A stretch of 64,000 nt of DNA from a virus (IMGVR_UViG_3300014205_000174); one strand, 5' to 3'; positions 3,207 through 60,642 are shown, counted from the first letter of the stretch. Notes: a model not told the origin generated them from the sequence alone. Made by a program: numbers and translations.

Positions 3207-3680
3207 ATGAACGAACAATACTCAATACAACCCATACCGATTGAACACAAATACTGTGCTATAGGGGAGCGGATATTTGCCTTTGACAAAACACTTGATA
3301 AGTGGGCATATAATTACCTCGACAAATTATCACATACTGAAATACCTCAGCGCTTTCTTGTGACGTCCGATGACCCGTTAGCCTTTGGCGGCTATGTATT
3401 GACGGAAAGCGGCGAGTTACATAAGCGCAGGCAATCTGACACCGATAGATTTGTCTTAGCTGCATACCCTGCATTACCAGGTATGCGCTTAATTAGCGAC
3501 TGGGATGTTAATAAGTGGATAGAGGAGGGCTGTCCCAAGAAAATACTTTTGGAGGTAAAAAGCCTGCATGTCCCAACCGATTCTGATACAGAATACGAAT
3601 CAGCAGACACCATGAAGAAATGGAATCGCATAACGCCAAAACTTAACCAAAATCACATCATCTGTATATGGATGCAATAG
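3207..3680 (+). CDS. hypothetical phage protein
   Basis: Paralogous C-terminal segment (VLAAYP...DVNKWIEEGCPK). Confidence 0.7.
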   Translation: MNEQYSIQPIPIEHKYCAIGERIFAFDKTLDKWAYNYLDKLSHTEIPQRFLVTSDDPLAFGGYVLTESGELHKRRQSDTDRFVLAAYPALPGMRLISDWDVNKWIEEGCPKKILLEVKSLHVPTDSDTEYESADTMKKWNRITPKLNQNHIICIWMQ

Positions 3681-3886
3681 TTGTAACCTACCGTAATAAT
3701 GGCTCCAACAATGGAGCCGGCGACTACCACGCCTGTTTCGAAAACGATACCGCAACGTGGGAATGCGGAAGAACGTCCGACGAGACCATAGGGAAGCTAA
3801 TGCGGTCTACGCAGCAGAGAACCGGTATAAAAATAGTTGACGCAGGCCCATTGAAACGAATCCCGGAAAGTCTTTTTAAAAAATAA
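3668..3886 (+). CDS. hypothetical protein
   Basis: 72-aa ORF in operon. Confidence 0.6.
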   Translation: MDAIVVTYRNNGSNNGAGDYHACFENDTATWECGRTSDETIGKLMRSTQQRTGIKIVDAGPLKRIPESLFKK

Positions 3887-3913
3887 TATGTAAACCAATA
3901 AAAAACACTGAAA

Positions 3914-4240
3914 ATGGACGCTATATCTGAAGCTGAATTGAAAAACCTGAGAACACAAGTGACATTACTTACGGACATAAACAAATGCTACTCGGATGTA
4001 ATGTACTGTATTGTTACGGCAGCATCACAGGCGCTGTCGGGCGAAAACGGCATAAATTATGACGGCTTGTATATTTCTCAGGCAGATGGCGACATTTCTT
4101 TACCGGTGAAAGACTTCAAAAAAATGAAAATATTGCTTGAGATTTTAGCAACCCGTAAAAATCATGATGAAATACCTGGCGCAAAGAGCGAGATTACGAA
4201 AATAAACCTGCTCACAAAGGTACTTGCACAATTACAATAA
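3914..4240 (+). CDS. hypothetical protein
   Basis: 108-aa ORF in operon. Confidence 0.65.
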   Translation: MDAISEAELKNLRTQVTLLTDINKCYSDVMYCIVTAASQALSGENGINYDGLYISQADGDISLPVKDFKKMKILLEILATRKNHDEIPGAKSEITKINLLTKVLAQLQ

Positions 4241-4402: not shown

Positions 4403-5614
4403 ATGAACATAACCATATTCGGCAAAGAAATAATAGATGAATCGACCATCATCCAGTTGCAAAACTGCATGGTAGATAATGCAATAGGCGTAATTACCGC
4501 CGACGCCCATAAGGGCTACTCCATGCCGGTTGGCGGGTGCATAGCCTACAAGGATATGATATCCCCGTCAGGCGTCGGATATGATATCGCATGTGGAAAT
4601 ATGGCCGTGCAAACCAATGTACTGGCCTCAGACATTAATGCCAGCCATGTAATGAATGAGATTGCACGACTTATATCTTTTGGTGTGGGCCGCCCAAACA
4701 ATGAGCCGGTAGACCATGAGGTGCTTGATAAGATATCTCAATCGAACTTTGCACCACAGCGCAAAATGGCACAGTTGGCCAAGAGCCAGTTGGGTACCGT
4801 CGGAAGCGGGAATCATTTCGTAGATATTTTCAAAGACGAAAATGGCTTAATCTGGATAGGCGTACACTTCGGCTCCCGTGGCTTCGGCCATAAGACAGCG
4901 TCAGGGTTTATGTCCATGGCCCAGGGGCTTGATTTCGATGAACGTGCCAAAGGCGAGTCCATGGATGCGCCACCTACGCTTTTCGCCACCAATACAGAAC
5001 TGGGGCAAGCTTATATAGACGCTATGAACCTTTGCGGGGAATACGCCTATGCGGGCCGGGAGACCGTTATCAATAAAGTATTGGGCATACTGGGTAATCC
5101 GGAAGTTACTTTCTCCGTACACAACCACCATAATTTCGCATGGAAGGAAAACCACTTTGGTGAAGACTACTGGGTAGTACGAAAAGGATGCACACCTGCC
5201 TTTCCAGGCCAACGAGGTTTTATCGGGGCCAACATGCGCGACATATCCGTTATCGTGGAAGGTGTAGATACGGAACAATCCCGTAATGGCCTGTATTCTA
5301 CCGTACACGGAGCGGGCCGCATTTTATCGCGCACACAGGCTGCCGGAAAGAAGAAGTGGGTCAAGGGGGCGGATGGCAAAAAAAAGCCCGTAACGGTTGG
5401 CAAGGGCGTTATTGACTTTGACCAGGTACGTCACGAACTCACAGAACGCAATGTTGAATTACGCGGAGCTGGTGCCGATGAGGCCCCCGGATGTTACAAG
5501 AACCTGTCAGACGTCTTAGCCTACCAAGGAGACACAATCAAGATACTGCATAAGCTTACGCCAATTGGCGTGGCCATGGCCGGAGGTAATGAATTTGACC
5601 CTTATAAAGACTAA
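4403..5614 (+). CDS. rtcB: RtcB-family RNA ligase
   Basis: Motifs DAHxGYxxPVGG, GVGYDIACG, LGTVGSGNHF, HFGSRGFG, HNHHN, RKG, HGAGR, DEAPxxYK. Confidence 0.95.
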   Translation: MNITIFGKEIIDESTIIQLQNCMVDNAIGVITADAHKGYSMPVGGCIAYKDMISPSGVGYDIACGNMAVQTNVLASDINASHVMNEIARLISFGVGRPNNEPVDHEVLDKISQSNFAPQRKMAQLAKSQLGTVGSGNHFVDIFKDENGLIWIGVHFGSRGFGHKTASGFMSMAQGLDFDERAKGESMDAPPTLFATNTELGQAYIDAMNLCGEYAYAGRETVINKVLGILGNPEVTFSVHNHHNFAWKENHFGEDYWVVRKGCTPAFPGQRGFIGANMRDISVIVEGVDTEQSRNGLYSTVHGAGRILSRTQAAGKKKWVKGADGKKKPVTVGKGVIDFDQVRHELTERNVELRGAGADEAPGCYKNLSDVLAYQGDTIKILHKLTPIGVAMAGGNEFDPYKD

Positions 5615-5617
5615 GAT

Positions 5618-6055
5618 ATGCCTTACAAAGAACCATTAACGATAACAATCAAAGAGCTACATGATAACTTCAGGAAGTTAATTCTTGAGGACAGGGCCAA
5701 AGGATTTAAAATAGGTGGGTTTGGGGAATTATATTGGAATGCATTTCCTGTCAGCAAGCTTAAATATGCTTCATATATCTCCGCTTCTATAAAAAAGAAC
5801 TGTAAAAGCCTTTATTGTTGCAGGTCACGCAGGAATTATAAAGGGAAATATGACCCTATTTTTATAAACAAAAACCAGAAGGTAACAATATACTATTACA
5901 AAAGAGTATCAAAAAAGATAGATTCCTTGTTTGAAAGAAAGATAGCTTTATACGATATGCCGCCTTTTCTGGCTATGGGCGTACTTGCGCTATTAGGTCT
6001 GGGTCATTTTATGAAGTTAAAAAACAAAGCAATCAATGAGCCATCAGGACTTTAA
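5618..6055 (+). CDS. hypothetical protein with C-terminal hydrophobic segment
   Basis: 145-aa ORF. Confidence 0.6.
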   Translation: MPYKEPLTITIKELHDNFRKLILEDRAKGFKIGGFGELYWNAFPVSKLKYASYISASIKKNCKSLYCCRSRRNYKGKYDPIFINKNQKVTIYYYKRVSKKIDSLFERKIALYDMPPFLAMGVLALLGLGHFMKLKNKAINEPSGL

Positions 6056-6416
6056 GTTAGCGCAGGATATACAATCCGCATTCATGTCTATAGGCCACTC
6101 AGCTATTAACGCTGATTTTGCCTGCAAGCTGCTTGCCTATACATATGTAATGGGTGGCGGCAACAAAGCAGTTGTATTAAACCCTGCAATGAATGCTGGC
6201 ATAGGTATGGCCACGCAGCTATTGAACCTGAAAGGTGGCGAAATCCCCAACGCTGATTTATTGCCTAATTTGCAGCAACGAATTGCCGAACTGGAGGAAG
6301 ATATGGAGAATACTGCCTGGCTGCCTGAAATAGGCGAGCGATATCACCTGACTATAAAATACGGCACCTATGTTAAACCAGTAAAGAAACCAAATGACAA
6401 AGAAAACCGAAAATAA
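6036..6416 (+). CDS. hypothetical protein
   Basis: 126-aa ORF. Confidence 0.65.
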   Translation: MSHQDFKLAQDIQSAFMSIGHSAINADFACKLLAYTYVMGGGNKAVVLNPAMNAGIGMATQLLNLKGGEIPNADLLPNLQQRIAELEEDMENTAWLPEIGERYHLTIKYGTYVKPVKKPNDKENRK

Positions 6417-6741
6417 AATTAATGAAATAATTACCCAGGTAACAGGGAAGATTTCCAGGCTCGAATGCGATGGCGCTACCAGAGTGCTTGCCCACCTGCT
6501 GACAAGGAATGAGATACAGCATTCAGTCATGGTTGGCAGTGCCTCTATGGGTGAAATCCACATCCCCGTACACTACTGGATTGTCATCGATGGTAAAATA
6601 TTGGACTTAAAAGCGAAAATGTGGTTTGGAGATAAGGCTACCGAAGGTATCTTTGCAGGCAGCCCGGTACAATATAATGGGCGAGCTATAGAGATGAAGA
6701 CGTCTGAGACTGTTTTTAATATTTTAATGAGAAATAGTTAA
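6394..6741 (+). CDS. possible transglutaminase/papain-like small protein
   Basis: Cys (ECDG), His (HYWI) and Asp (ILD) spaced like a transglutaminase-like triad. Confidence 0.4.
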   Translation: MTKKTENKINEIITQVTGKISRLECDGATRVLAHLLTRNEIQHSVMVGSASMGEIHIPVHYWIVIDGKILDLKAKMWFGDKATEGIFAGSPVQYNGRAIEMKTSETVFNILMRNS

Positions 6742-6752
6742 ACAAAACCAAC

Positions 6753-6941
6753 ATGCAAATAAAATTCAAAGAATACAATGAGGGCAATAAGCCGCAAAGA
6801 GGGGACATCTGCCTGTGCAAATGTCCTGGCTTTTGTGAAGAGGGCGTAATCACAGCCGAGTACACTAGAGATGGCTTTGTGTTTTCCGGACACGGGAACA
6901 TTGACAGGTACGTTACCGCTTACGTTGTTTTAGACCTTTAA
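6753..6941 (+). CDS. hypothetical protein
   Basis: 62-aa ORF in operon. Confidence 0.55.
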   Translation: MQIKFKEYNEGNKPQRGDICLCKCPGFCEEGVITAEYTRDGFVFSGHGNIDRYVTAYVVLDL

Positions 6942-10129: not shown

Positions 10130-11407
10130 TTAGCTTTTGGAGAGCGGGTTTAGGTTAGAGACCCTCCTTGGACGAACTACAACGCCCTGTATCCCATCGG
10201 CAAATGCGTTAGGGAATACCTTTCTGATAATATTGCCACTGCCATTACAGTCGGCATTAATCAACAAGCCATCTTTGCTCACAAACAAACCGCGCTTCAC
10301 CCGCTTACCAAGGTATTTATCCTGATGTTGTACCGGTTCATTGTCGATGAAGCTGCATTTGCTGGTGTGTGACTCTTCAACAAGAATCACGTCTATACCA
10401 ACCATATCAGCCTTGTACTGCAACATACCGACGAATCTCGCATGCGGAATCTGCACGAAGTTCTGGTTGTTTTTATCGCCGAGGTTGATTTGCTGCTTCC
10501 AGCCGATGTTCTTGCCAATAACCAGCGTTCCGATGTCGTTACTCACCAGGTGCTGCACAATGTACTTGCTTGCGCAATGCAGGTAATGGTCAATCTTGCT
10601 GTTGCGCTTTTCGGTCATCCGTCTGATTCTCTTTGATGTGCCAGTGCCAATAAGCGATTTCAGTCTTGCCAGTTTTTTGTTATAATAAGCGTTGATGCTC
10701 TTTAGCGCCCTGCCGTTAATGAGTAAGGGTGTCACCCCCTCTGCATTTGATGTTACAGCCGCAAGGTTGTCTACGCCGATATCTATGCCCGCTATGTTTT
10801 GTTTGAGCAGGCTTCGTATTACCTCCTTTGGTTTAATGTATACTATTTCTATTGTATAAAACCCGCATTCAGGCACTATGCGTACCTGCTGTATATTCTT
10901 TTGCTTTGTTGGTATTCTTATCATAGTGCCCGATAAGGATACGATGCTTTTCTCTAACGCCGTCTTTGATATAGCCTGTATGGTATAGGTGAGCACGTTG
11001 CGCCCATGGGCTTTGTCCTTATACTTAGGCAGGGCTGGCTGTCCGGTAAACTTATCCTTATTGGCCGACCATACCTTAATGGCGGTAAAGAATGACTTCC
11101 AGTTTTTATCAAGCAGCATTAATACCTGCTGGCTGACCTTGGCGGGGAGCGCCGTGTAGTCCGATTGCTTCTCATTCTGTAGCTGCTTTTGCAGGTCGCT
11201 GTACCGGAGCCAGAGCGCATGCTCCCGCTTGCCTTCCAGTTTCTCTTTACCGCTATCAATAAACAACTGACGGATACGGTAATTAGCGGCATTATACAGA
11301 TTCTTGGACAGAAAGCACAACCTGTCTATTTCTTCGAAATGAACATGACCGGCACCTATCTTATGCCGCTCAACCAATGTTATGCTATTCCCGCTTTTAT
11401 CCTTCAT
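10130..11407 (-). CDS. tnpB: IS200/IS605-family TnpB RNA-guided endonuclease (no tnpA nearby)
   Basis: SKNLYNAANY, GIDIGVDNL (RuvC-I), EESHTSKCS, INADCNGSGNI (RuvC-III); TATATTTG promoter at 11420-11427 favours ATG 11407. Confidence 0.9.
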   Translation of the reverse strand: MKDKSGNSITLVERHKIGAGHVHFEEIDRLCFLSKNLYNAANYRIRQLFIDSGKEKLEGKREHALWLRYSDLQKQLQNEKQSDYTALPAKVSQQVLMLLDKNWKSFFTAIKVWSANKDKFTGQPALPKYKDKAHGRNVLTYTIQAISKTALEKSIVSLSGTMIRIPTKQKNIQQVRIVPECGFYTIEIVYIKPKEVIRSLLKQNIAGIDIGVDNLAAVTSNAEGVTPLLINGRALKSINAYYNKKLARLKSLIGTGTSKRIRRMTEKRNSKIDHYLHCASKYIVQHLVSNDIGTLVIGKNIGWKQQINLGDKNNQNFVQIPHARFVGMLQYKADMVGIDVILVEESHTSKCSFIDNEPVQHQDKYLGKRVKRGLFVSKDGLLINADCNGSGNIIRKVFPNAFADGIQGVVVRPRRVSNLNPLSKS

Positions 11408-11433
11408 GTTGCAATACATCAAATATACAAAAT

Positions 11434-11450
11434 CCGGCACGATTGTTGCA
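11434..11450 (+). promoter_or_regulatory. sigma54-type promoter
   Basis: CCGGCACGATTGTTGCA heading the 11524-15099 gene block. Confidence 0.7.
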
Positions 11451-17097: not shown

Positions 17098-18006
17098 TTA
17101 AATTTTTGTTTGACTTTTTATTATTTCAGTTAATCCTTGCTTCAGTGTATATGCTGGTTTCCACCCCATTTTCATAATACGGGTATTATCCATTATCTTT
17201 CTCATCGTCCCGTCCGGCTTAGTGGTATCGTATTGTATCTTACAATCGTCCATGCCTAATATATTAAGTATCATTTCCGCAAGGCCCGTTATTGATATCT
17301 CGCAACCGGTGCCTACATTTATATGGCCGGGGTCATTATAATTTTTCATTAAAAACACGCACGCCGATGCCAAATCATCCACATGCATAAATTCCCGGTA
17401 TGGCCGTCCGCTCCCCCACAATACATAATCCCCGCCCAGAAACTTTTTAATAAGCGCCGGTATAACATGTGAATTTTGCAAATGATAGGTGTCGCCAGGG
17501 CCATATAGATTACAGGGCATTGCTGATATAAAGTTGCTTTTGTATTGCGCCCTGTAGGCGTCACACATTTTAATACCCGCTATTTTCGCTATCGCATAGG
17601 TGTCATTAGTTGGTTCAAGAGGCCCGGTAAGCAGGTATTCCTCTTTGATAGGCTGTGGACAATCTTTGGGATATATGCAGCTACTCCCTAAAAACAATAG
17701 CTTTTTTACACCGTACAACCTCGATGCCTCGATAATATTGGCCTGTATCATAAGGTTATCATACAAAAAATCAGCCTTATATGTACTATTAGCAAGTATG
17801 CCTCCGACCTTTGCCGCCGCTAAGAATACATACTCATACCCCCCTGAATCAAAAGCGTCATTCACATCAGCTTGCTTTCTAAGGTCTAGCTCTTTACTGG
17901 AGAACCCAAATATATTAGTATACCCCTCACTGGTAAGATGCCGCTTTATTGCAGCGCCCACCATGCCATTTATCCCGGCTATGTATATCCGGCTATCCTT
18001 TTCCAT
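17098..18006 (-). CDS. fcl: GDP-L-fucose synthase
   Basis: [41 protein letters not shown]. Confidence 0.95.
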
Positions 18007-19033
18007 AAATTTTCATATCACTTTGAACCATTTCTTTTATAATACCAGCAAGGTCATACGCTGGTTTCCATCCCAGCACTTTCCTTGCTTTAGTTGAATC
18101 ACCAATAAGTAAGTCTACCTCCGCCGGCCTAAAATAACGCGGGTCTACTTCCACGACCGATTTACCCGTATTTATATCTACACCTACTTCATTTAGGCCC
18201 TCGTCACTGAATGCCAGCTTTATGCCAGCTTGACCAAATGCCATTATAGCAAAGTCCCTTACCGATGTAGTTATACCAGTGGATATCACATAATCGTCGG
18301 CTATATCCTGCTGAAGCATCAGCCACATGGCCATTACATAGTCTTTTGCGTGTCCCCAGTCCCTCTTTGCGTCAAGATTGCCCAGCCATAACTTCTCTTC
18401 TATACCTAATGCAATCTTTGCTGCCGCTATGGTTATTTTACGGGTAACGAAGGTTTCCCCTCGTCTAGGGGATTCATGGTTAAATAATATCCCATTACAT
18501 GCAAACAGGCCGTAAGACTCTCTATAATTAACCGTTAGCTGGTGAGCAAAGACCTTCGCAACAGCATATGGTGACCTCGGATAAAATGGAGTATTTTCAG
18601 TCTGTGGTGTTTGTTGTACTTTCCCATACTGCTCTGAAGACGATGCCTGGTAATACTTGATTTCATTCATTCTTCCGGAATTCCTGATAGCCTCCAATAG
18701 GCGCAATGTACCCATTGCCGCAACATCTGCCGTATACTCCGGAATCTCAAAACTAACTTTAACGTGACTCATTGCCGCCAGATTATATACCTCATCCGGC
18801 TTTAATTCTGTTATAAGCCGGAATAAGCTTGCGCCATCTGTCATGTCGCCGTAATGCATATGAAAATCACCCGCCTGGTGCGGGTCTATATATACCTGGT
18901 CAATACGCTCTGTATTTATTAAAGATGTCCTCCTCTTAAGGCCATGTACAGTGTATCCCTTACTTAATAAAAGCTCCACAAGATAACTTGCGGTTTGTCC
19001 CGTAACACCTGTAATAAATGCTATTTTGCCCAT
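17993..19033 (-). CDS. gmd: GDP-mannose 4,6-dehydratase
   Basis: [55 protein letters not shown]. Confidence 0.97.
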
Positions 19034-25834: not shown

Positions 25835-26478
25835 AATCCGCCGCTTATTTCTATGTTTTGACCAGTGATGTATTCGTTGTTGATAAGGTATTCTATGGTT
25901 GAATACAGTTCAGTTATCTCACCGAAACGCTTCAACGGTATTGAATCTTTTATGGCGTCCCTGTTCTGCGGTGACATGCTGTTACACATGCCGCCCCCAA
26001 AATAACCAAGCTGAATGCTGTTGCAGGTAATCCCTTTGGCAATATTTTCCGCACTGGCCGTTTTTATAATATTATCTATGAAAGCTTTAGAAGCGCTATA
26101 TACCGATGTGCCAACCACCGTCTTCCTGGCAAGTACTGAGGATACCAGTATTATCCTTCCGTAATTCTGTTGCCGCATTTTTTTCAGTGCACAAGCGATG
26201 ATATTTAAAGAACCGATAGCATTGACATTGATTACCTTAAGTATATTTTCTATGTTCTCCTGCCCGATTTTATGCAGAAAAGAATCATGATTAAATCCGG
26301 CAAGCCCTATAACAACTCCGGGGTTCGTAGTTGCGAAAAAATCCGCTACTTCTTTAAATTTTGTCACATCAACCTGTTGTGATGATGGGCAGACAACATC
26401 ATATTTGCCCGCCATCAGCTTTACAAGCTCTGTCCCAAGCCCGCCGGAGCCACCGAATACTACTGTTTTATTATCCAT
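25831..26478 (-). CDS. short-chain dehydrogenase/reductase (FabG-like)
   Basis: GGSGGLG, YSASK, IPLKRFG, YITGQ. Confidence 0.88.
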   Translation of the reverse strand: MDNKTVVFGGSGGLGTELVKLMAGKYDVVCPSSQQVDVTKFKEVADFFATTNPGVVIGLAGFNHDSFLHKIGQENIENILKVINVNAIGSLNIIACALKKMRQQNYGRIILVSSVLARKTVVGTSVYSASKAFIDNIIKTASAENIAKGITCNSIQLGYFGGGMCNSMSPQNRDAIKDSIPLKRFGEITELYSTIEYLINNEYITGQNIEISGGL

Positions 26479-27448
26479 TTAGGCAACTAAAATTATTATT
26501 AAAAATCATTTCTATCAAGTCATCCTTTCTCAGGCGTGCATTATATTCCGGGCCGCCCGTATCAGGGCAGGCATTAATCATCCAATATTTTGCTTTTTCA
26601 ATATCTATATCGCACCCATGGCCAAACTGGTACATCCATGATAGGTACAGCGAATTTAAACAAAAATCATTTGGATTTTTATCACTGTTCAGAAAAAAGT
26701 CAAAAGTATCTTTTGGGGACTTCATAAACATACCCAGAAACCCTTTTATGAATGACCCACCACAACTGCCTACAGAGCTGTCTTTGTTGGCGTAGATGAG
26801 ATTGCCTTCCGTTGGGTTCAGGAAGTCTATATACCAGTCAAGATGCCTTGCTGCATACGGAGCCATTACCCTTATAGTGCTCATTTGCAGCCTTTTAAAT
26901 TCAGGGCTTCTTGGAAACAATACAAACGTAGTGTCTATAGCATCAGAGGAATAAAATATATCATCCCTGTGATGCGTCATCCTGCGTTTATATAAAATCC
27001 TGCTTTCGGTTATCATCATACGCGACCTCAGTGCGTAATTTTCAGGAATATTTATGGCATAATGCGGGCCAACAGCATAATTATACCTGTCACACAATTC
27101 AATGAAGACCTCCAGTGTGTCGTGTTTAGCTATATCCATACAACAGTCACAATCAGATACAACAAAATAAGGTGTGCTATGATTGTCGAAATAATTTTTA
27201 ACCGCATTATTTATATTCTGCGTCAATTCATCCATTGTGAAAATCTTGGGGCCGGTAAATATTTTATATTCTTTCCCAAGCTCTTCAAGCAGCGCTACGC
27301 ATTTTTCATTATCAGTACCGTTATCAACTATTACCACATCATAGTCACCGGTAAAATGCTTATAGGATTCCAGTGTTTCGCTTAAAACTTCCAGTCTGTT
27401 AAATGTCACAACAAAAATGGCGACTCTTGGATTGCTTGGATTAAACAT
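26471..27448 (-). CDS. GT2-family glycosyltransferase
   Basis: VVTFNR, IVDNGT, VSDCD, IDTTF, ARHLDWY. Confidence 0.8.
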   Translation of the reverse strand: MFNPSNPRVAIFVVTFNRLEVLSETLESYKHFTGDYDVVIVDNGTDNEKCVALLEELGKEYKIFTGPKIFTMDELTQNINNAVKNYFDNHSTPYFVVSDCDCCMDIAKHDTLEVFIELCDRYNYAVGPHYAINIPENYALRSRMMITESRILYKRRMTHHRDDIFYSSDAIDTTFVLFPRSPEFKRLQMSTIRVMAPYAARHLDWYIDFLNPTEGNLIYANKDSSVGSCGGSFIKGFLGMFMKSPKDTFDFFLNSDKNPNDFCLNSLYLSWMYQFGHGCDIDIEKAKYWMINACPDTGGPEYNARLRKDDLIEMIFNNNFSCLNG

Positions 27449-27503
27449 GCTTTGGTTTTATTTTGGTTTTTAAAGAAGATGTTGACGATAAACAGATTTC
27501 AAG

Positions 27504-28034
27504 TTATTTTCTGAATATTAAAATCCGGTTATCATCCACATTATCGTATGGGCAAAATTTAACCAATGTATATGGGATACCAAGCGCATCAAAATGTGGC
27601 CGCTGTCCAGTCACAACGTCTTCAACAACCAGGATACCGCCCGGAACCATTCTTGGGTATACCATTTTGACAAAATCCACCTGCCTGAGCACATCATGCG
27701 GGCCGTCATCAATAGCTATGGTGAGTTCAGGTAATTCATCTGGATTAATATTATAAAAGTCCTTGACAATTACTGTCGCCCTGTCAAATTTTATTTCAGG
27801 GGGGACTATATCATACCCTATGATATTTGCATTAACGAAGTAGTCCTCAAATAATTTGATTGACCCGCCTTTCGCAGTGCCAACCTCCAGGATATTTATG
27901 GGGCTATTCTCCCATTTACTAAATAGCTCACCATATGTTGTTAAGTAATTATGGTGCGTGTCTTTGTCTGTTGGATAATAACCGAATCCCTTTGACCAAA
28001 ATAATTCTTTTAAACTCATGCTATTTTTTCCCAT
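27504..28034 (-). CDS. class I SAM-dependent methyltransferase
   Basis: TDK..HNY, LEVGT..GGS, IDDGPH, GGILVVEDV. Confidence 0.85.
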   Translation of the reverse strand: MGKNSMSLKELFWSKGFGYYPTDKDTHHNYLTTYGELFSKWENSPINILEVGTAKGGSIKLFEDYFVNANIIGYDIVPPEIKFDRATVIVKDFYNINPDELPELTIAIDDGPHDVLRQVDFVKMVYPRMVPGGILVVEDVVTGQRPHFDALGIPYTLVKFCPYDNVDDNRILIFRK

Positions 28035-28044
28035 TTTTTTATTT

Positions 28045-28959
28045 TTAAGGTAAGTATTCAAAAATAAGATTTATCCTGTTTATGTAAGTGTGATTGTTTT
28101 TTACTTCCTCCATTGCAGACAATATGTTTTCATTGACACTATCGCTATTAGCTGCCTCGATTGATTTATTGAATAAGTCAATGCTGTCTGGTGCATAAAT
28201 TATCTGGCCATCAAATATTCCATCGACGGTCTTACTGTTTGTTATACCAAGATTGCCATAGCTTATATTCTTAAAAATCCTGCACGTCACGTACTGATTG
28301 GTAACCTGCCATTCACCCTGAATAGTTGGCGCTAATTTTGAAGACCTGACCAAATCATAATTTTCTTCAAATGATACAGGCGAGCCCCACGGGTCAATTT
28401 TTATAACAGGAATACCCTTTGCAGTACACTGGTCAAAAAATGGCTGTAACTGTCTGCCATTCTGGAATGTTCCTGTGAAATCACCAAAAGTTCCTATCCA
28501 CACACACTGGTTAAATCTTGTTTTTGGTAAATCAAAATTAAATTCTCCCGGCAATAAGTTTGTTGCCCAGGGCATAAATACTATATCAGAGATTTCACCC
28601 TTCAGGTATCCGGTACAATTACTAAGCTTGATTATATTGTCGTAGGCGAATACATCCTTATTAAAAGTCTGTATTGAAAGTACTTTACAGCCCGCATCAA
28701 TATACTTTGCCGGATTTATATTATGCAAAATATATCGTGATGTTTTGTTAAGGGGGATATTTCGCTCCTGCCCTTCGAATGCAAAAAACAAACAGTCATT
28801 GAAATTTTCCGCACTATGGTCTTCCTCATCGAAATACCATTTCGCATCATAACCCATATGCTCAAATGCCTTTTTGAACCCGGCATAAATGAATGAATTA
28901 GTGTGCGAGTATAGTTTATAGCCCCACAGTATAATTTTATTGAATTTTCGCATTATCAA
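28045..28959 (-). CDS. putative GT-B glycosyltransferase
   Basis: Paralogue of 21343-22332 (WG.KL.SHT, MPWATNLLP, CRIFKNISYG, HTY.NRI). Confidence 0.65.
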   Translation of the reverse strand: MIMRKFNKIILWGYKLYSHTNSFIYAGFKKAFEHMGYDAKWYFDEEDHSAENFNDCLFFAFEGQERNIPLNKTSRYILHNINPAKYIDAGCKVLSIQTFNKDVFAYDNIIKLSNCTGYLKGEISDIVFMPWATNLLPGEFNFDLPKTRFNQCVWIGTFGDFTGTFQNGRQLQPFFDQCTAKGIPVIKIDPWGSPVSFEENYDLVRSSKLAPTIQGEWQVTNQYVTCRIFKNISYGNLGITNSKTVDGIFDGQIIYAPDSIDLFNKSIEAANSDSVNENILSAMEEVKNNHTYINRINLIFEYLP

Positions 28960-29561
28960 CCTTTTGTTTTTAAACTACTTAATCTGTAATAAAATAAAAT
29001 TTCTGGCAGTATTTTAAATGAAGCCTTTTTTTCCCTGATTCTTTTCCACAATGCAAAATCATCTTTCGGTATTTCATGTGACTTTAATTTATCGCGATAT
29101 TCCAGAAACTTTTTCGTATATCCACAAGCAGGATGCGCTATTATATTGTGATTTTTAGCAAACTCCGTGTCTATATTTAATAAATGAAATGCTGTACAAT
29201 AATCACTATCCAGTATTTGGTAATTACCGGATATTATTGGTATGTTAGCATCAAAAGCTTTTATTTGCAAATCAACTCTTTCGGGAAAATAAACATCATC
29301 AACATTACTATTCAATACAAAATCATAACCCATTCTGAATGCTATATCAACCAGCCGATTATGGGCCTGCGCATGGTCTGTTAGATATACAGAGCTAAAT
29401 ATAGAATTTTCAAAAATCCGCTCTTTACCACCACCATAATTCAACTCTAATATATCAAAATTAGTATACGTTTGGCTAAGTATCGATTTCTTATACGAAT
29501 ATATCCAATCTTCTGGATATCTGTTTATATTTTTATGAAACGATATTATGGCTGTTTTCAT
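28956..29561 (-). CDS. putative GT2-like glycosyltransferase
   Basis: SILSQTY.NF, NVDD, DDFALW, EILFYYR. Confidence 0.65.
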   Translation of the reverse strand: MKTAIISFHKNINRYPEDWIYSYKKSILSQTYTNFDILELNYGGGKERIFENSIFSSVYLTDHAQAHNRLVDIAFRMGYDFVLNSNVDDVYFPERVDLQIKAFDANIPIISGNYQILDSDYCTAFHLLNIDTEFAKNHNIIAHPACGYTKKFLEYRDKLKSHEIPKDDFALWKRIREKKASFKILPEILFYYRLSSLKTKG

Positions 29562-30316
29562 TTACGCATTTCTTCATGATTCTTACTCAATAAAAGTATC
29601 TTGCATTCATATCCTACACCATTCCATAAACTATATATATGTGGGTTGTTTTCTGGATAATGATACCCTGGACTAAGCACAACACTTGGTGGATTGTCTA
29701 TCATATATTTGTTCATCATCGATTCATCATGCCATACGGGTATTATACCATTTGATTCATCAATATCTATTAACCTACTACACTCGGCAGACATTTTGAA
29801 AAACTCATTATTGCTGAATGAATAAAAGCCACCTCCGAAATAATTCCTTTCCGTTCCTGGCACAACATACGCCTTTGATTCAGGTCTTGTTTCAAAAGAC
29901 CCCATGTTATTTACAAAACCACAATGCTGCACTACGGTTCTTTCACTTAAAACCTCAGTCCCTACCGGACTTTTTATTAATGTATCCGCATCTATATAAA
30001 TTATCTGATTCTGGGTTAGGCTTTCTTTGTATTTATTAAAATAGTGGAATCTATATAAGGTGGGGTATGGGAAAGGTTTATGCGCTACATTATGAAATGA
30101 ATAGTTATCTCCTATGCCATCTACGACCCATGATTTATCGCTAAATATGTGATAATGCTTTTTATTGTTTGGCAGGAAATATTTTTCTATAGAATTTATC
30201 AAGGGCTGTATATATATACTGTATTTCCCGGTAGCAACCAACACAAATCCTATAGATATATTATACTTATCGACCTTTTCTTCCCTTTCGTCAACAAGAG
30301 GATAATAATTATGCAT
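29558..30316 (-). CDS. GT6-family (ABO-like alpha-1,3-Gal/GalNAc) glycosyltransferase
   Basis: VATGKY, YIDAD, YFGGGF, WHDESMMNKY, LSPGY.YPE, K.H. Confidence 0.88.
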   Translation of the reverse strand: MHNYYPLVDEREEKVDKYNISIGFVLVATGKYSIYIQPLINSIEKYFLPNNKKHYHIFSDKSWVVDGIGDNYSFHNVAHKPFPYPTLYRFHYFNKYKESLTQNQIIYIDADTLIKSPVGTEVLSERTVVQHCGFVNNMGSFETRPESKAYVVPGTERNYFGGGFYSFSNNEFFKMSAECSRLIDIDESNGIIPVWHDESMMNKYMIDNPPSVVLSPGYHYPENNPHIYSLWNGVGYECKILLLSKNHEEMRK

Positions 30317-33638: not shown

Positions 33639-33794
33639 TTACTTCACTTTATCCCTTCCTGGATAATCATCCAGGAAAACTAAAATATTGTCAATGTTAT
33701 CAATCCTTTCTGCATTATCGGTAAGTTGCGCCTGTATTATCTTCTTCTCCTCCCCGCGCAGAAAATAGTCTTCGTCAAATCTGTTTTTACCCAT
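33639..33794 (-). CDS. small hypothetical protein (MGKNRFDEDY..., 51 aa)
   Basis: 3-prime part of the tracked 174-aa ORF, outside the array. Confidence 0.45.
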   Translation of the reverse strand: MGKNRFDEDYFLRGEEKKIIQAQLTDNAERIDNIDNILVFLDDYPGRDKVK

Positions 33795-33902
33795 TGTGTG
33801 TGATGTGATTTTTATGAATTCACTTTCCTTGTTTGTTGCACCTACTTTTTCATGCTTTAATTTCGTCTCCTTACCAAGGATAGTCAGGTAAGAGAGCGCA
33901 GT

Positions 33903-34190
33903 GTTGTAACTACCTTTTGAATGACCTGCAATTATAGTATTGCGACTTATTGTCTGGTTACTTAGTTCTAAAGGGTTGTAACTACCTTTTAAATTACCGA
34001 CTCTCACAACTAAATTTACCGCCAGGGGTTTTATTGTCCAGTTGTAACTACCTTTCAAATTAGGGCCTGCTACAACACATATTTTAATTGCCTGTTTGCA
34101 ATAGTAGTTGTAACTACCTTTCAAATTAGGGCCTTTTACAACTACTGACAGGGTAGCTATCATCTATCAGTTGCAACTACAACTACCTTA
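33903..34190 (-). CRISPR. mini CRISPR array 3 (half repeat, three full 36-nt repeats, one degenerate)
   Basis: Repeats at 34107-34142, 34041-34076, 33975-34010 and 33903-33938, e.g. GTTGTAAAAGGCCCTAATTTGAAAGGTAGTTACAAC; spacers 27-30 nt. Confidence 0.9.
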
Positions 34191-34295
34191 AAAGGCAAAT
34201 ATTTTAAAAAATAAAAAAAGTATTCGGGAGTGGCTAATAATCCCTCCCGCCAAGGACGTACAACCGCCCCACAAAATATTATGTCAAAGAACTTA
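34170..34295 (-). ncRNA. tracr/omegaRNA-like scaffold, copy 3
   Basis: Near-identical to 59107-59232 and 59694-59818; differences fall in the CGGGAG/CTCCCG loop and the linker. Confidence 0.8.
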
Positions 34296-36872: not shown

Positions 36873-36889
36873 TGCAATAATCGTGCCGG
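36873..36889 (-). promoter_or_regulatory. sigma54-type promoter
   Basis: CCGGCACGATTATTGCA directly upstream of the Fis-like HTH gene. Confidence 0.7.
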
Positions 36890-38585: not shown

Positions 38586-40436
38586 TTAATAGACCTCGGG
38601 AAACTCCCGTACTGCAAATTCTTCGGGGAATTCGTTGATATCACTACCATGCCGCACTTTCATGCCCATTTTCTTACCAAGGTAAGTGCCCATCTGTTTT
38701 ATAAACACAGGCACGCCGGCTCTTTTACATTGCTGGATAATCTCGCCTATCCAATGACCCTCACAGGGCCGATATCCCCACTTGCCTATCTCGTTGCCGC
38801 TCTCCCCGCCAACAATAACCCAATGAATAAGCGTATAAATGCCTACATAGCCATGACCCCAGTCTTTTGGCGCGGTACCCAGCAGGCCCAAGTTAAGCGG
38901 GCTTAATAATGGCTCACAACTCAGGAAGCGGACTTTCGCCGGTACCTGGCATAGTAATGGCACCCTTTCCTCTGCACGTTCCTGATTCTCCACACTGGTG
39001 CCAAGCCATACATTTTCCCAACCATCACCCCAGTCCGCCGGTAAGTGTTCTAGAATTCGCTCCGGATGCTTTGTGAGTATTTGAAAGATAAGATGAGGAC
39101 ACTTGCGGATAATGTCCCAGGCCTCATGCCTAAAGGAATCAATTTCCGGGTGAAAGAAATCGGTGAGTGACGATGTAAACACCAGTGGCCTGCCACCCCA
39201 TGCCTCAGACTTAGTGCCCTTGTACTTCAGGGGCATATTGAATGTCGCAGGAGCCGTTCTTTTCACAATGCGACCATCATACTTAAACCTGTCACCCTCA
39301 CGCATCATATAGCAATTGTGAACTATAAATCCATTAGCTACAAATGTTTTTGAAGAGGTCTGTATATCAATCAACTCAGTTTCCCCAATATATTTTATGC
39401 CGTAAATAATTTGGTGGTTGGTAGCGGTTCTTTGGCCAGTAACAATGCAGTTTCTTAATAATGCCGGAGTAACTGTTGTAAAAAAATTTACTTTTTCAAC
39501 CAACCCACCGTGAAGAGTAAACACATTGCTAGCATAGCTGTATTTAAACCCCAGTTTATCCAGGCTTTTTGATATATTATCAACTACTTCCTTATTTGCG
39601 ACTACACCCTGAGCAATTCTTAAGGCATTAGTTCTTAATTTTTCGCGTTTTTTGGATTTATACGTACTCATATTCCCCTCTGCGTCAAACATTCCGGAAA
39701 TATAGCCCCTATGCCAATCTATGTCGTCTGTTGGATTATTATAACATTCCAATATTTTACTCAAAACTGGCTGGCTGCGGCTCTCAACTTTATTTATTTT
39801 AGTTTGCCCCTCCTCCGCACTAAATTCCTTTATGTCAAGCACCATATTGAACAATACTTTACAATATAGTACCACCCTGTCAAGTATTACTGTATCACAC
39901 AAAGCAATACGCCAATAACACTGTGGCGATTCCTTCTTCCATACGCTACCCCAGTCCGGACTATATTTGAATGTGCCATCTCCGTCAGTGACGCCAGCGA
40001 TATACCCTTTCATAAAAGTCTCAGTTATTGAATTCCCCTCGTATACATTCAATACATTAAGCTTCGTTTTTGAAACTTTGAGCAGGCTTAACGTCTTCCA
40101 TGGATTTCTTATTCCCAGAGAAAGGAATGGGTGGTCTTCGCTACACACAATTGTTCTGCCATTAGCTATACTTATTTCGAAAGCTGGCTTTACCACGCGA
40201 GATATCGCTTCAACGGTTGCGATTTCAAATTCTCTATATTGATTCGAAGCGTATTCCTGCACGGAAAAAACCTTGTCCCCTACTTGCAGCTCTGACATTT
40301 TTTTCCTTGTATAGTCCGCCATCAATATTATACTATCAGGGTGCAAGCAATTTTTACACCCTTCACTTTTGGGCGTACATCCCCTTGCAAGGTTATAAGT
40401 GATGTCTGTCCACGGTATGTTGGTTCTTGTTCCCAT
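38586..40436 (-). CDS. DUF5131 (phage Gp37/Gp68) protein containing an intein
   Basis: IPWTD.TYN..GC...SEGCKN/CY; SSLTDFFH, QILTK, VWLGTSVE, FLSCEPLL, WVIVGGESG, FIKQMG. Confidence 0.93.
   Translation of the reverse strand: MGTRTNIPWTDITYNLARGCTPKSEGCKNCLHPDSIILMADYTRKKMSELQVGDKVFSVQEYASNQYREFEIATVEAISRVVKPAFEISIANGRTIVCSEDHPFLSLGIRNPWKTLSLLKVSKTKLNVLNVYEGNSITETFMKGYIAGVTDGDGTFKYSPDWGSVWKKESPQCYWRIALCDTVILDRVVLYCKVLFNMVLDIKEFSAEEGQTKINKVESRSQPVLSKILECYNNPTDDIDWHRGYISGMFDAEGNMSTYKSKKREKLRTNALRIAQGVVANKEVVDNISKSLDKLGFKYSYASNVFTLHGGLVEKVNFFTTVTPALLRNCIVTGQRTATNHQIIYGIKYIGETELIDIQTSSKTFVANGFIVHNCYMMREGDRFKYDGRIVKRTAPATFNMPLKYKGTKSEAWGGRPLVFTSSLTDFFHPEIDSFRHEAWDIIRKCPHLIFQILTKHPERILEHLPADWGDGWENVWLGTSVENQERAEERVPLLCQVPAKVRFLSCEPLLSPLNLGLLGTAPKDWGHGYVGIYTLIHWVIVGGESGNEIGKWGYRPCEGHWIGEIIQQCKRAGVPVFIKQMGTYLGKKMGMKVRHGSDINEFPEEFAVREFPEVY
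39315..40349 (-). mobile_element. 345-aa intein with LAGLIDADG homing endonuclease
   Basis: Begins CLHPDS, block B CSEDHPF, GYIAGVTDGDG and GYISGMFDAEG, ends FVANGFIVHN followed by Cys+1. Confidence 0.93.
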
Positions 40437-56127: not shown

Positions 56128-56144
56128 TTGGCACGGGATTTGCA
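56128..56144 (+). promoter_or_regulatory. sigma54-type promoter heading the operon that ends in dCas12f-like gene and arrays
   Basis: TTGGCACGGGATTTGCA. Confidence 0.8.
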
Positions 56145-57942: not shown

Positions 57943-59094
57943 ATGGCTGAAAAACGTATAGTTATTACCCGGAAAGTAAAAATAGACTTTGACGTTGCCG
58001 ACAAGGCCGCATTAAAGGAGTGCTATAATACCGTGTTCTCATGGAACCGGATAGTGCACAAGGCCGCAAACTGGATAATCACGCACCAGTACATGCAGGA
58101 AAACGTAAAGGACTTCTTCTACATTACAGATGCGATAAAGCTGAAGCTGGCCAACATCGACAAAGACGAGGACGGCATACTCACCACCAGCAAGGACAAT
58201 ACCACCTACCAGTTGCTTAGCAAAGCATTTAAGGGGGAATGCCCGATGGGTATGCTATCCGGCCTTAATACGGTTGTGTGCAAGAAATACAAGTCCGATG
58301 CCTTCAAAATAAAGAAAGGCGAAGTCTCCCTTGCCTCTTACCGCAGAAATATCCCTATGCCCATCCGGAGCGCGGATATCTCTTCCTGGGAAAAGCAAAG
58401 TGATGGCAACTATTCATTTTTCGTATACGGCCTGGCTTTCAAAACATGGTTTGGCAAAGACCTGAGCGACAACCAGTCAATATTCGACCGCGCACTGCAA
58501 ACCGGCGAGTATAAGCTTTGTGATTCATCCTTTCAACTGGAAAAGAAAGACGGTAAGTGGAAGATGTTTTTCCTGGCAGTATTCTCCTTTGACAAGGAGC
58601 TTGTTAAGGTGGATGAAAATAAAGCCGCTGTTTGCCGGCTTAGTATACAATACCCGATTGTTATTGCAGAAAAGAAAGACAAGTTCTGGCATATCGGCAC
58701 CGCTGAAGAATATATGCACCGCAGGCTGGCCATACGCGGCGCTTTACACAGGGTTCAAAAAGCCTGTAAGTATAATAAAGGGGGTAAGGGCCGGGACAAA
58801 AAGCTACATGCCATAGAGCGCTTTGAAGACGCTGAAAGCAATTACATTAATAGCCGCATGCACCTTTATAGCCGACAGCTAATTGATTACTGCATAAAGC
58901 GCGGTATCGGCAAGATTGTACTCGACAACTACAAGGAGGTTGTTGACAAGACACATCAGGAGAATGAGGAAAGTAAATTTTTGCTGAGCTCATGGAGTTA
59001 CTTTAATTTAGCTGATAAAATAAAATACAAGGCTGCAAAAGTGGGCATATTGGTGGAGATGGAAGGAGACCCGGAGCCCGAGCCAGTAATTTAG
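57943..59094 (+). CDS. nuclease-dead Cas12f/TnpB-like RNA-guided DNA-binding protein
   Basis: ITRKVKI N-terminus, GEVSLASYR..IPMP, LCDSS.Q; RuvC-I read as AVCRLSIQYP (no Asp), bridge helix KGGKGRDKKL, HLYSRQLID, RuvC-II IVLDN, WSYFNL..KI.YKA..GI.V then stop (no Zn finger or RuvC-III); scaffold and array follow directly. Confidence 0.85.
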   Translation: MAEKRIVITRKVKIDFDVADKAALKECYNTVFSWNRIVHKAANWIITHQYMQENVKDFFYITDAIKLKLANIDKDEDGILTTSKDNTTYQLLSKAFKGECPMGMLSGLNTVVCKKYKSDAFKIKKGEVSLASYRRNIPMPIRSADISSWEKQSDGNYSFFVYGLAFKTWFGKDLSDNQSIFDRALQTGEYKLCDSSFQLEKKDGKWKMFFLAVFSFDKELVKVDENKAAVCRLSIQYPIVIAEKKDKFWHIGTAEEYMHRRLAIRGALHRVQKACKYNKGGKGRDKKLHAIERFEDAESNYINSRMHLYSRQLIDYCIKRGIGKIVLDNYKEVVDKTHQENEESKFLLSSWSYFNLADKIKYKAAKVGILVEMEGDPEPEPVI

Positions 59095-59106: not shown

Positions 59107-59232
59107 TAAGTTCTTTGACATAATATTTTGTGGGGCGGTTGTACGTCCTTGGCGGGAGGGATTCTTTTCCACTCCCGAATACTTTTTTTATTTTTTAATG
59201 ATATTTGCCTTTGTTTGAAAGGTAGCTACAAC
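59107..59232 (+). ncRNA. tracr/omegaRNA-like scaffold fused to half repeat, copy 1
   Basis: Hairpin GGGGCG-GTTGTA-CGTCCT with loop complementary to repeat end TACAAC; CGGGAG/CTCCCG stem; TGCCTTT anti-repeat pairing with AAAGGTA. Confidence 0.8.
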
Positions 59233-59460
59233 GGTAAGCCGTCGTCTACGGGCACTGTGAGTTGTAAATGACCAGGATTTGAAAGGTAGCTACAACCTTA
59301 GTCGCACAAAAGGGAGCGACCTGCATGGCTGTAAAAGACCGGAATTTGAAAGGTAGTTACAACAACCAGAGGATAACGGTTTCACGATATTGTGAATGAC
59401 CATAATTTGAAAGGTAGTTACAACGAATGGTAACGGTTTTACTTAAACAGAAAGTTGTTT
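59214..59460 (+). CRISPR. mini CRISPR array 1
   Basis: Half repeat ending 59232; 36-nt repeats 59261-59296, 59328-59363, 59389-59424; spacers 28, 31, 25 and ~29 nt; degenerate GTTGTT at 59454. Confidence 0.9.
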
Positions 59461-59461
59461 T

Positions 59462-59677
59462 ATGAATAATGTGCGAAAAATTGGTCGCTGTTTTAATGGG
59501 GCCGAAAGAGACGGAGGAAAGACGGTACATGCTATTGACTCCGAAAAGCCAAATGGAGACTGGTTTGGGAAGGCCGTTTGCGGAACAGAACCAGGGTATC
59601 GGGGAAACGGCTGGGCGAAAACAGATAAACCAGTAAGTTGTACACGGTGTATAAATAAAATGGCGAAACGCACGTAG
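59462..59677 (+). CDS. small Cys/His-containing hypothetical protein between cassettes 1 and 2
   Basis: 71 aa; VHA...AVCG...VSCTRC. Confidence 0.65.
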   Translation: MNNVRKIGRCFNGAERDGGKTVHAIDSEKPNGDWFGKAVCGTEPGYRGNGWAKTDKPVSCTRCINKMAKRT

Positions 59678-59693: not shown

Positions 59694-59818
59694 TAAGTTC
59701 TTTGACATAATATTTTGTGGGGCGGTTGTACGTCCTTGGCGGGAGGGATTCTTTTCCACTCCCGAATACTTTTTTATTTTTTAAGGTATTTGCCTTTGTT
59801 TTGAAAGGTAGTTACAAC
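59694..59818 (+). ncRNA. tracr/omegaRNA-like scaffold, copy 2
   Basis: Nearly identical to copy 1. Confidence 0.8.
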
Positions 59819-60092
59819 GATTAATAGTTCAAGTTCACTGATTTTTAGTTGTATAAGACCATAATTTGAAGGGTAGTTACAACACATAAGCTACTACAAG
59901 AAGCATTTTCACTGTTGTGAAAGACCCGAATTTAAAAGGTAGTTACAACGTACATTCATTGGGCTAAATTTTGATTTGGCTGTAAAAGACCCAAATTCAA
60001 AAAGTAGCTACAACTAAAGCAGTGATATAAAACATCATGGGCCTGTGTTCACGTTACGTGAACGACCATTAAACCAGTTTAAGTAGCTACAC
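59800..60092 (+). CRISPR. mini CRISPR array 2
   Basis: Half repeat ending 59818; 36-nt repeats 59848-59883, 59914-59949, 59979-60014; spacers 29, 30, 29 nt; degenerate end AAGTAGCTACAC 60081-60092. Confidence 0.9.
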
Positions 60093-60111
60093 CCAAAAAC
60101 AATAAGAACGA

Positions 60112-60642
60112 ATGAGAATAATATTCCTTGACATAGACGGAGTCTTAAACAGCCAGCTTTTTTACACTGAAAGAAGTCAATGCCAAAGGGCCAGTGATGG
60201 CGCAGGAGCCGACATTGACGAGCGGTGCGTTAATTACCTAAACAGCCTGATTGCAGAAACCGGAGCAAAGGTTGTGATAAGCTCCACCTGGCGGTCAGAT
60301 GGCCTTGAATATTGCAAGACGGCATTGGAGGCAAAGGGCTTTGTTGGCGAGATAATCGATGTCACTCCTCACTTACGCCACGAAGGCTGTCTCAGAGGCA
60401 ATGAAATCTACCACTGGATACAGAAAAACAGCGAGATGCTATGCGGGAGCACAAATGGCAGCGACTTCAAGGAATATGTAATATTTGACGATGATAGCGA
60501 TATGCTGTACTGGCAACGCAACAACTACATCCAGATTGACGCCTATTGCGGACTCACTCCGAATCAATGCTACAGGGCCAAATTTATTCTCTGCCGTGAT
60601 ATGACTTTCGGAGACAGTTTTGGAAATAATATAAAAAAGTAA
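60112..60642 (+). CDS. HAD-domain protein (Swiss Army Knife RNA repair-like)
   Basis: IFLDIDGVLN, VVISSTWR, RG.EI..W, YVIFDDD.DM, GLT. Confidence 0.88.
   Translation: MRIIFLDIDGVLNSQLFYTERSQCQRASDGAGADIDERCVNYLNSLIAETGAKVVISSTWRSDGLEYCKTALEAKGFVGEIIDVTPHLRHEGCLRGNEIYHWIQKNSEMLCGSTNGSDFKEYVIFDDDSDMLYWQRNNYIQIDAYCGLTPNQCYRAKFILCRDMTFGDSFGNNIKK

Follow-up and report, generated by a model that had tools for sequence, protein, structure and literature searches.

The non-coding cassette at 33903-34294 on the minus strand is very probably a third guide-RNA module of the nuclease-dead Cas12f (dCas12f) of a 211-kb phage (211,455 bp), and it lies 24 kb away from the dCas12f gene. Within the 64-kb (64,000-nt) stretch of phage DNA analysed here, hereafter the window, this cassette (cassette 3) consists of an 87-nt scaffold, a truncated repeat, and an array of four 36-nt repeats whose spacers are new. 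Two cassettes of the same layout (cassettes 1 and 2) follow the dCas12f gene on the plus strand. If this reading is correct, a jumbo phage disperses multi-guide modules for a 383-residue protein that is predicted to bind DNA under RNA guidance without cutting it, implying that one very small protein could be programmed to control several targets, be it in the host, among defence genes, or in rival phages.

Layout of cassette 3

All elements of cassette 3 lie on the minus strand. The scaffold core (34208-34294; 85.4 bits, E 8e-17 with the covariance model R1 described below) opens with the 5' motif AAGUUCUUUGA, followed by two hairpins and the start of a U-rich linker, which together would make up a tracrRNA-like scaffold. 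Hairpin 1 (34254-34269) is predicted to fold into a 5-bp stem with the 6-nt loop GUUGUA (34259-34264), and hairpin 2 (34225-34249), identified by folding and alignment, contains in its loop three bases unlike those of cassettes 1 and 2. Fused to the scaffold is a truncated first repeat (34170-34203), which contributes a short anti-repeat/repeat hairpin ending in UGCAAC and is directly followed by guide 0 (34143-34169, 27 nt). This arrangement, in which the scaffold would run through a short hairpin into the 3' half of a repeat and then into the first guide, places guide 0 where a natural single-guide RNA would carry its guide.

The single guide would be followed by a mini CRISPR-like array of four more repeat-guide units, consisting of repeat 1 (34107-34142, 36 nt) with guide 1 (34077-34106, 30 nt), repeat 2 (34041-34076, 36 nt) with guide 2 (34011-34040, 30 nt), repeat 3 (33975-34010, 36 nt) with guide 3 (33939-33974, 36 nt), and repeat 4 (33903-33938), in which the 5' half is degenerate and the 3' 16 nt are intact, with the trailing guide 4 (33871-33902). 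The spacing of the four 36-nt repeats (66-72 nt) and the unique spacers of 27-36 nt have the regularity of a CRISPR array, and an earlier reading of the DNA from sequence alone (hereafter the sequence-only reading), which had described a half repeat followed by four repeats with new spacers, was accurate on this point. A decayed terminal repeat may follow in register at 33835-33870 (-), a weak candidate that matches the 3' half of the repeat at 13 of 20 positions, a score equalled by 2.7% of random stretches. A possible decayed terminal repeat is also seen after cassette 2, at about 60058-60093 (+).

Compared to cassettes 1 and 2, the truncated repeat of cassette 3 is decayed, with a 3-nt deletion in the loop, a 6-nt duplication, and a change of the terminal UACAAC to UGCAAC. 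Because the fused junction has thus acquired a smaller hairpin loop, a duplication, and an altered end, guide 0 of cassette 3 may not work.

Cassette 3 occupies a non-coding gap of approximately 510 nt between small hypothetical phage ORFs on the minus strand. The listed ORF 33639-34163 is spurious in the stretch that overlaps the array, and the real gene downstream of the cassette probably starts at 33794. No homologue of dCas12f was detected near cassette 3, the window containing a single dCas12f copy, which bears out the earlier description of a minus-strand operon with no effector gene. A 72-aa ORF upstream of the cassette was considered as a remnant of a dCas12f C-terminus and rejected, as it shows no similarity.

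Comparison of the three cassettes

Cassette 1 (59108-59424, +; R1 87.6 bits) comprises a scaffold (59108-59194), a truncated repeat (59197-59232), and repeats starting at 59261, 59328, and 59389. Cassette 2 (59695-60014, +; R1 88.3 bits) is built in the same way (scaffold 59695-59781, truncated repeat 59783-59818, repeats at 59848, 59914, and 59979). Between them lies a 71-aa ORF with several cysteines (59462-59677, +) that matches no family. All three cassettes share the 87-nt element, a 5'-truncated repeat, and full 36-nt repeats 61-72 nt apart, with three full repeats in each of the first two cassettes, four in cassette 3, and a different sequence in every spacer. The 3' motif of the repeats occurs 12 times in the window (0.5 expected), in each case within one of the three cassettes. 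Conservation is uneven along the repeats (95% in the 3' 20 nt, 78% in the 5' 16 nt), a pattern that fits a handle located directly before the guide, as in type V systems.

The scaffold cores of cassettes 1 and 2 are identical over 69 nt, and that of cassette 3 is 96% identical to both in a gapless alignment. The claim of the sequence-only reading that the scaffold is the same, with identical stems, was confirmed: the core of cassette 3 differs at three bases, all within the loop of hairpin 2, and a few more differences are found in the linker.

Such near-identity within one genome could also reflect recent duplication or gene conversion, and cassette 3 could accordingly be a decaying, non-functional duplicate derived from the dCas12f locus and retained only through its recency. 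The decay of the fused first unit and the lack of an intact 5' half in repeat 4 are compatible with this explanation, as is the failure to find a target for any guide. None of the 13 guides matched the 64-kb window above chance, either over the full spacer length or over the first 16 nt, and the same was true of searches against GenBank phages (E up to 10) and 401 Chitinophagales genomes, and of comparisons between the phage guides and 75 loci and between 485 spacers of other loci and the window; guide 0 of cassette 3 likewise had no target in any of these sets. However, the scaffold core is 96% identical with all stem positions intact, whereas no two spacers are the same and the repeats are only 79% alike, indicating that the scaffold was held constant while the rest diverged. 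Furthermore, the similarity among the three cassettes has a sharp 5' edge, one base before AAGTTC, with the 200 nt upstream being unrelated, and thus stops exactly at the 5' end of the RNA. The 3' handle is intact in all four repeats (4/4), and relatives as a rule have several cassettes in their genome. We therefore consider a non-functional duplicate unlikely and retain the guide-module reading.

A covarying scaffold RNA linked to dCas12f genes

The MAFFT alignment of 12 scaffolds from eight loci yielded a two-hairpin fold with compensatory double changes in 9 of 14 pairs and was used to build the covariance model R1. In the window, R1 gives exactly three matches (85-88 bits), the next best hit scoring 12.9 bits. 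Outside of it, 36 copies were found beside dCas12f genes, and the scaffold was present next to the gene in 19 of 19 distinct dCas12f loci examined, both phage and bacterial. The loci with matches comprise phage-like contigs (L060-L064, L066), IMG/VR viral contigs (L069-L071), a 371-kb contig with a Gp23 capsid gene (L067), a Chitinophagaceae MAG (L068), and Sphingobacteriaceae genomes. No copy of the scaffold was detected by R1 in seven Cas13b loci. The covariance-model scan proposed in the sequence-only reading, here performed with a model from eight loci, thus recovered the three copies in the window and further copies in related phage loci. A search of IMG/VR with an exact 32-nt scaffold string gave no match.

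Across loci, compensatory changes affect 4 of the 5 pairs of hairpin 1 and 7 of the 9 pairs of hairpin 2. Among 31 distinct scaffolds, 96% of the stem cells are paired (38-48% with partners slid), and compensatory changes are seen at 11 of the 14 stem pairs; this 31-sequence alignment was fitted to R1 and hence favours it, and the MAFFT-based count of 9 of 14 is independent of that. Selection on RNA structure, as proposed from the sequence alone, could not have been argued from three near-identical copies of the same genome and is shown here by the comparison across loci. On this comparative evidence, the 87-nt element is a structured RNA under selection that we interpret as the guide-RNA scaffold of dCas12f, and among the loci examined its linkage appears to be exclusive to dCas12f genes.

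Homologous elements also occur beside dCas12f genes linked to sigma factors. In Parapedobacter and Pedobacter, where the dCas12f gene comes directly after a sigma-factor gene, the AAGTTCTTTGA motif opens the sequence right after the dcas12f stop codon, followed by the same two hairpins, an ACAAC end, and then a variable stretch. The scaffold was alternatively considered as the terminator of the upstream gene combined with a promoter for the array. This was rejected, since a terminator scan made no call at hairpin 2 (the T run begins 5 nt past the stem), the stems co-vary across loci, and the element is homologous to the scaffold in sigma-E-linked loci.

The combination of scaffold and array is also found in L060, L067, L069, L070, and L068, and such units are present in multiple copies per locus in related phages and bacteria. 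With the scaffold tied to dCas12f in 19 of 19 loci and with units in several copies, the comparison supports the earlier idea of a portable module that would act in trans. In L068, three tandem scaffold-plus-array cassettes (4764-6760) lie downstream of a 422-aa dCas12f belonging to the phage clade. In the phage-like contig L062 (dCas12f 59% identical), the scaffolds are located upstream of the gene (3600-3990), and the repeats are reduced to approximately 16-18 nt of the 3' end, with periods of 44 and 26 nt that imply guides of approximately 10-25 nt. This reduction to the 3' end would fit a handle directly in front of the guide.

Predicted pairing between scaffold and repeat

The six bases that immediately precede the guide, at the end of the repeat or of the fused scaffold, are complementary to the 6-nt loop of hairpin 1. 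The loop GUUGUA is combined with the repeat end UACAAC in the window, L060, L062, L067, and L070; in the viral contig L071, GUUGUG is matched by CACAAC, and in the Niabella locus L073, CUUGCA by UGCAAC. The altered junction of cassette 3 (UGCAAC) can still pair with its loop via a G-U pair, and the one exception is L068, whose loop GUUUAA does not fit this pairing. The co-variation suggests a pseudoknot in the fused guide and, for the array-derived units, a way in which the scaffold RNA could hold them in trans. It also provides a concrete rule for guide design.

A second contact between scaffold and repeat is plausible: in both the window and L068, a short run of pyrimidines in the linker base-pairs with AAAGGU of the truncated repeat, forming a hairpin. 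In L070, a change in the repeat is accompanied by one in the linker. For a longer anti-repeat, a duplex-energy test gave mixed results, with z = -4.2 for L070a, -3.7 for cassette 3, and -3.1 for L060b, and no such anti-repeat for cassette 1 or L069.

A repeat family shared with type VI-B systems

The repeats of the phage also have the form of type VI-B (Cas13b) repeats, being 36 nt long, with GTTG and CAAC ends and spacers of approximately 30 nt. In the species-representative genomes scanned, the repeat 3' motif together with the start of the following repeat was found at 59 loci, nearly all in Bacteroidota. Approximately 22 of these adjoin Cas13b (including Segatella buccae ATCC 33574), and six adjoin dCas12f. 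The repeat closest to the phage consensus, with 32 of 36 identical positions, belongs to a Niabella array beside Cas13b (NF038190, 785 bits). Thus, a family of 36-nt repeats (GTTG, then TTTGAAAGGTA, 3 nt, ACAAC) adjoins both Cas13b and dCas12f genes in Bacteroidota, with representatives at L054, L041 (Niabella), L010 (Segatella buccae), L001, L022, L031, L036, L043, and L053. We did not find this shared family stated in the literature cited here.

These similarities raise the possibility that the phage arrays were copied from host type VI-B units and are loaded by a host Cas13b that would thereby be turned on competitors or be occupied by decoys, i.e. by RNA anti-CRISPRs, in which case the scaffold would be a mere leader. 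The length, ends, and spacers of the repeats, the association of the motif with Cas13b at about 22 of 59 loci, the near-identical Niabella repeat, and the precedent of viral mini-arrays and RNA anti-CRISPRs (PMC11656645) all agree with this explanation. However, the covarying scaffold occurs only beside dCas12f and in 0 of 7 Cas13b loci, and the repeat motif flanks dCas12f in six Sphingobacteriaceae loci. In the five dCas12f genomes with such arrays that were searched (Sphingobacteriaceae), no Cas13b was detected, and the positive control worked. The part of the phage repeats that is degenerate is moreover the 5' half, which would be needed for a Cas13b repeat hairpin, and related phages keep the order of dCas12f, scaffold, and array while their repeats drift from the VI-B consensus, with the linker of L070 changing along with the repeat. 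The window itself encodes no ORF of Cas13b size and none above 616 aa. An origin as VI-B units serving the host Cas13b is therefore quite improbable compared to guide modules of the phage dCas12f.

Both effectors are present in a Niabella sp. and in Sphingobacterium hungaricum. Since the repeats are nearly those of host VI-B systems and some Bacteroidota carry both Cas13b and dCas12f, the phage arrays might be read by two effectors, with the phage's own dCas12f using them for silencing and a host Cas13b being occupied or redirected by them. We regard this dual use as doubtful; if true, it would mean that dCas12f guide RNAs and VI-B arrays share an origin and still cross-talk.

The dCas12f protein and its phage clade

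The presumed protein partner of the cassettes is encoded at 57943-59094 on the plus strand (383 aa) and was assigned by its match to a PDB entry and by a family profile. It matches 9n9c ("Nuclease-deactivated Cas12f") over residues 5-369 of 383 with an E value of 6.5e-81, and a profile of 34 relatives matches the same structure with an E value of 5e-152. The core also aligns with structures of active Cas12f (E 6.8e-38 for 9nzo). In the alignment to the active proteins 9nzo and 9nzr, the Asp of RuvC-I is replaced by Arg and the Glu of RuvC-II by Asp, and the phage protein ends approximately 90 residues early, lacking the zinc finger and RuvC-III. From these substitutions and the truncation, we infer a loss of activity and assign the protein as a nuclease-dead Cas12f. 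Pfam yielded no above-threshold match and NCBIfam only weak TnpB and Cas12f matches.

The family is large (820 clusters at E up to 0.001), including 131 close relatives of 255-422 aa, some on contigs of 200-560 kb and others on Bacteroidota chromosomes. As the 34-member family profile was too diverse, a narrower profile was used for the locus search. The dCas12f locus of the window itself had no match among GenBank phages. In a quick maximum likelihood tree of 38 proteins, the eight dCas12f from phage contexts fall into one clade (SH-aLRT 99), which further includes L068 and four proteins of unknown context, and the sigma-E-linked dCas12f form a separate clade (SH-aLRT 96).

The sequence-only reading had assumed a single dCas12f-like protein. 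This holds for the nuclease-dead Cas12f, which is present in one copy in the window, but the TnpB family is represented there by a canonical member as well. The gene at 10130-11440 (-) encodes an RNA-guided TnpB of 436 aa with OrfB_IS605 and zinc-ribbon domains and the RuvC motifs, which is apparently intact. That the cassettes serve this full-length RNA-guided TnpB (NF040570, 180.7 bits, cut-off 100) instead of dCas12f is highly implausible, as no such scaffold lies within 1 kb of its gene, it shares only 23% identity with dCas12f over 92 residues, and the scaffold accompanies the dCas12f gene in every dCas12f locus examined.

Several other genes of the window were identified. Functions in RNA repair are indicated by an RtcB ligase (4403-5614, +; 205 bits) and by a HAD domain of the "Swiss Army Knife" RNA-repair proteins (60112-60642, +; 91 bits). 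A DUF5131 protein of 616 aa (38586-40436, -) is interrupted by an intein (matches to Intein_splicing and Hint), and a GDP-mannose 4,6-dehydratase, an epimerase, and three glycosyltransferases form a sugar-modification block (17098-19033, -, and 26471-30316, -).

Expression context and proposed mode of action

Sigma-54-type -24/-12 motifs (TGGCACG, 4 nt, TTGC) occur 18 times in the window, compared to 1.1 expected, for example at 1594, 2244, 9937, 36874, 50484, 52964, 54175, 56129, and 62650, and most of them precede gene strings. The phage therefore seems to rely on promoters of the sigma-54 type. One of the motifs (36874-36888, -) heads the minus-strand gene string that contains cassette 3 and is a candidate promoter that may drive it; another (56129-56143, +) heads the operon ending in dCas12f and cassettes 1 and 2, which it may drive in turn. 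Both gene strings thus lie downstream of the same motif, and the suggestion that cassette 3 acts at a different infection stage found no support.

A sigma-E (rpoE) partner was detected neither in the 64-kb window nor in L060-L071 with an HMM built from five dCas12f-linked sigma factors, and no conserved protein neighbour of dCas12f is common to the phage loci. The rpoE partner marks the activator subgroup, not the dCas12f protein family. Because sigma-E is absent from the window and the related phage loci, repression by the complex is likelier than activation, with the use of a host sigma factor being possible.

For cassette 3, we propose a sequence of transcription, processing, loading in trans, DNA binding, and a regulatory effect, each step being deduced from the features described above. 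The cassette would be co-transcribed with the surrounding minus-strand genes, and the transcript would be cut into units, each retaining the conserved 3' 20 nt of a repeat ahead of the guide. The repeat end UACAAC would then pair with the loop of hairpin 1, and the purine-rich centre of the repeat with the pyrimidine-rich anti-repeat of the scaffold, in both cases either in cis or with a scaffold RNA in trans. The resulting RNA would be loaded onto a dimer of the dCas12f encoded at 57943-59094, and the complex would bind matching DNA without cutting it and alter transcription there, more likely by repression.

Comparison with known systems

In Bacteroidota, dCas12f binds guide RNAs of 85-105 nt, which are encoded immediately downstream of its gene and end, on the 3' side, in a 14-16-nt guide; with a genetically linked sigma-E, the protein initiates transcription where the guide directs it (Hoffmann et al., Nature 2026, PMC13472631). 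Some of these loci contain several tandem guide RNAs, some guide RNAs are located elsewhere in the genome, and in a Sphingobacterium locus they occur together with vestigial CRISPR arrays (PMC13472631). The phage system shares with these dCas12f-sigmaE systems (PMC13472631; 9n9c, 9n9m, bioRxiv 10.1101/2025.06.10.658880) the protein family, the dead RuvC, and the truncated C-terminus, as well as a homologous scaffold, which starts a few bases past the stop codon and has in common the 5' motif and the two covarying hairpins. In both, the guide is at the 3' end, and several guide RNAs are present per genome, some of them distant from the gene. In contrast, the phage system has no sigma-E or HTH partner in the window and seven related phage or viral loci, its proteins cluster in a clade separate from the sigma-E-linked dCas12f, its scaffold has an additional anti-repeat/half-repeat hairpin followed by a CRISPR-like array, and its carrier is a 211-kb phage. 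By these comparisons, we classify it as a phage-borne, sigma-less, array-bearing form of dCas12f systems, and its function is most likely guide-directed repression.

A cluster of rpoE-less dCas12f whose genes neighbour CRISPR arrays preceded by a covarying RNA has been described and predicted to consist of repressors (PMC13472631, Extended Data Fig. 1a,b). These loci resemble the phage system in the order of dCas12f, structured ncRNA, and array, in the lack of a sigma factor, and in the predicted repression. As described, they differ in being bacterial and in having guides aimed at efflux-pump promoters, whereas the present system belongs to a phage and has three cassettes, one of them an orphan 24 kb away. 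Phages are discussed neither in PMC13472631 nor in PMC10691335, and the papers on huge phages report Cas12f- and TnpB-like proteins in general terms only.

TldR proteins of temperate phages (bioRxiv 10.1101/2023.11.30.569447; PMC13418256) are likewise phage-encoded, nuclease-dead, RNA-guided members of the TnpB family, and their role as DNA binders that regulate transcription is the one also proposed here for the phage dCas12f. Unlike the latter, TldR derived straight from TnpB and not via Cas12f, uses one omega-RNA-like guide and no array, and is known from Enterobacteria and Enterococci, with flagellin and opp genes as known targets.

With type VI-B systems, the phage arrays have in common the length, ends, and 3' motif of the repeats, with 32 of 36 positions identical to the Niabella VI-B repeat, and like viral mini-arrays and RNA anti-CRISPRs they are short, phage-borne, and devoid of cas genes. 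They differ from type VI-B in the absence of a Cas13b-size ORF from the window, in the dCas12f scaffold that precedes the arrays, and in the degenerate 5' half of the repeats.

Finally, type V-F CRISPR-Cas12f systems (9nzo, 9nzr, 8hr5, 7l48) share with the phage system the homologous protein core, 36-nt repeats, spacers of approximately 30 nt, a tracr-like RNA between gene and array, and the lack of adaptation genes nearby. The phage effector, in contrast, is predicted not to cut. Compact natural systems of this CRISPRi type with natural multiplex arrays may also serve as tools. Altae-Tran et al. proposed an order of events in which Cas12f is inactivated, only a half repeat of the array is left next to the tracrRNA, and tracrRNA and half repeat finally become fused (PMC10691335). 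The phage tracr-like RNA, fused to a half repeat, would correspond to the intermediate stage of this scenario, as the phage clade keeps a fused single guide together with a CRISPR-like array. Since both guide forms are retained in the phage loci, they make the proposed fusion of the Cas12f tracrRNA and repeat to an omega-RNA-like guide testable.
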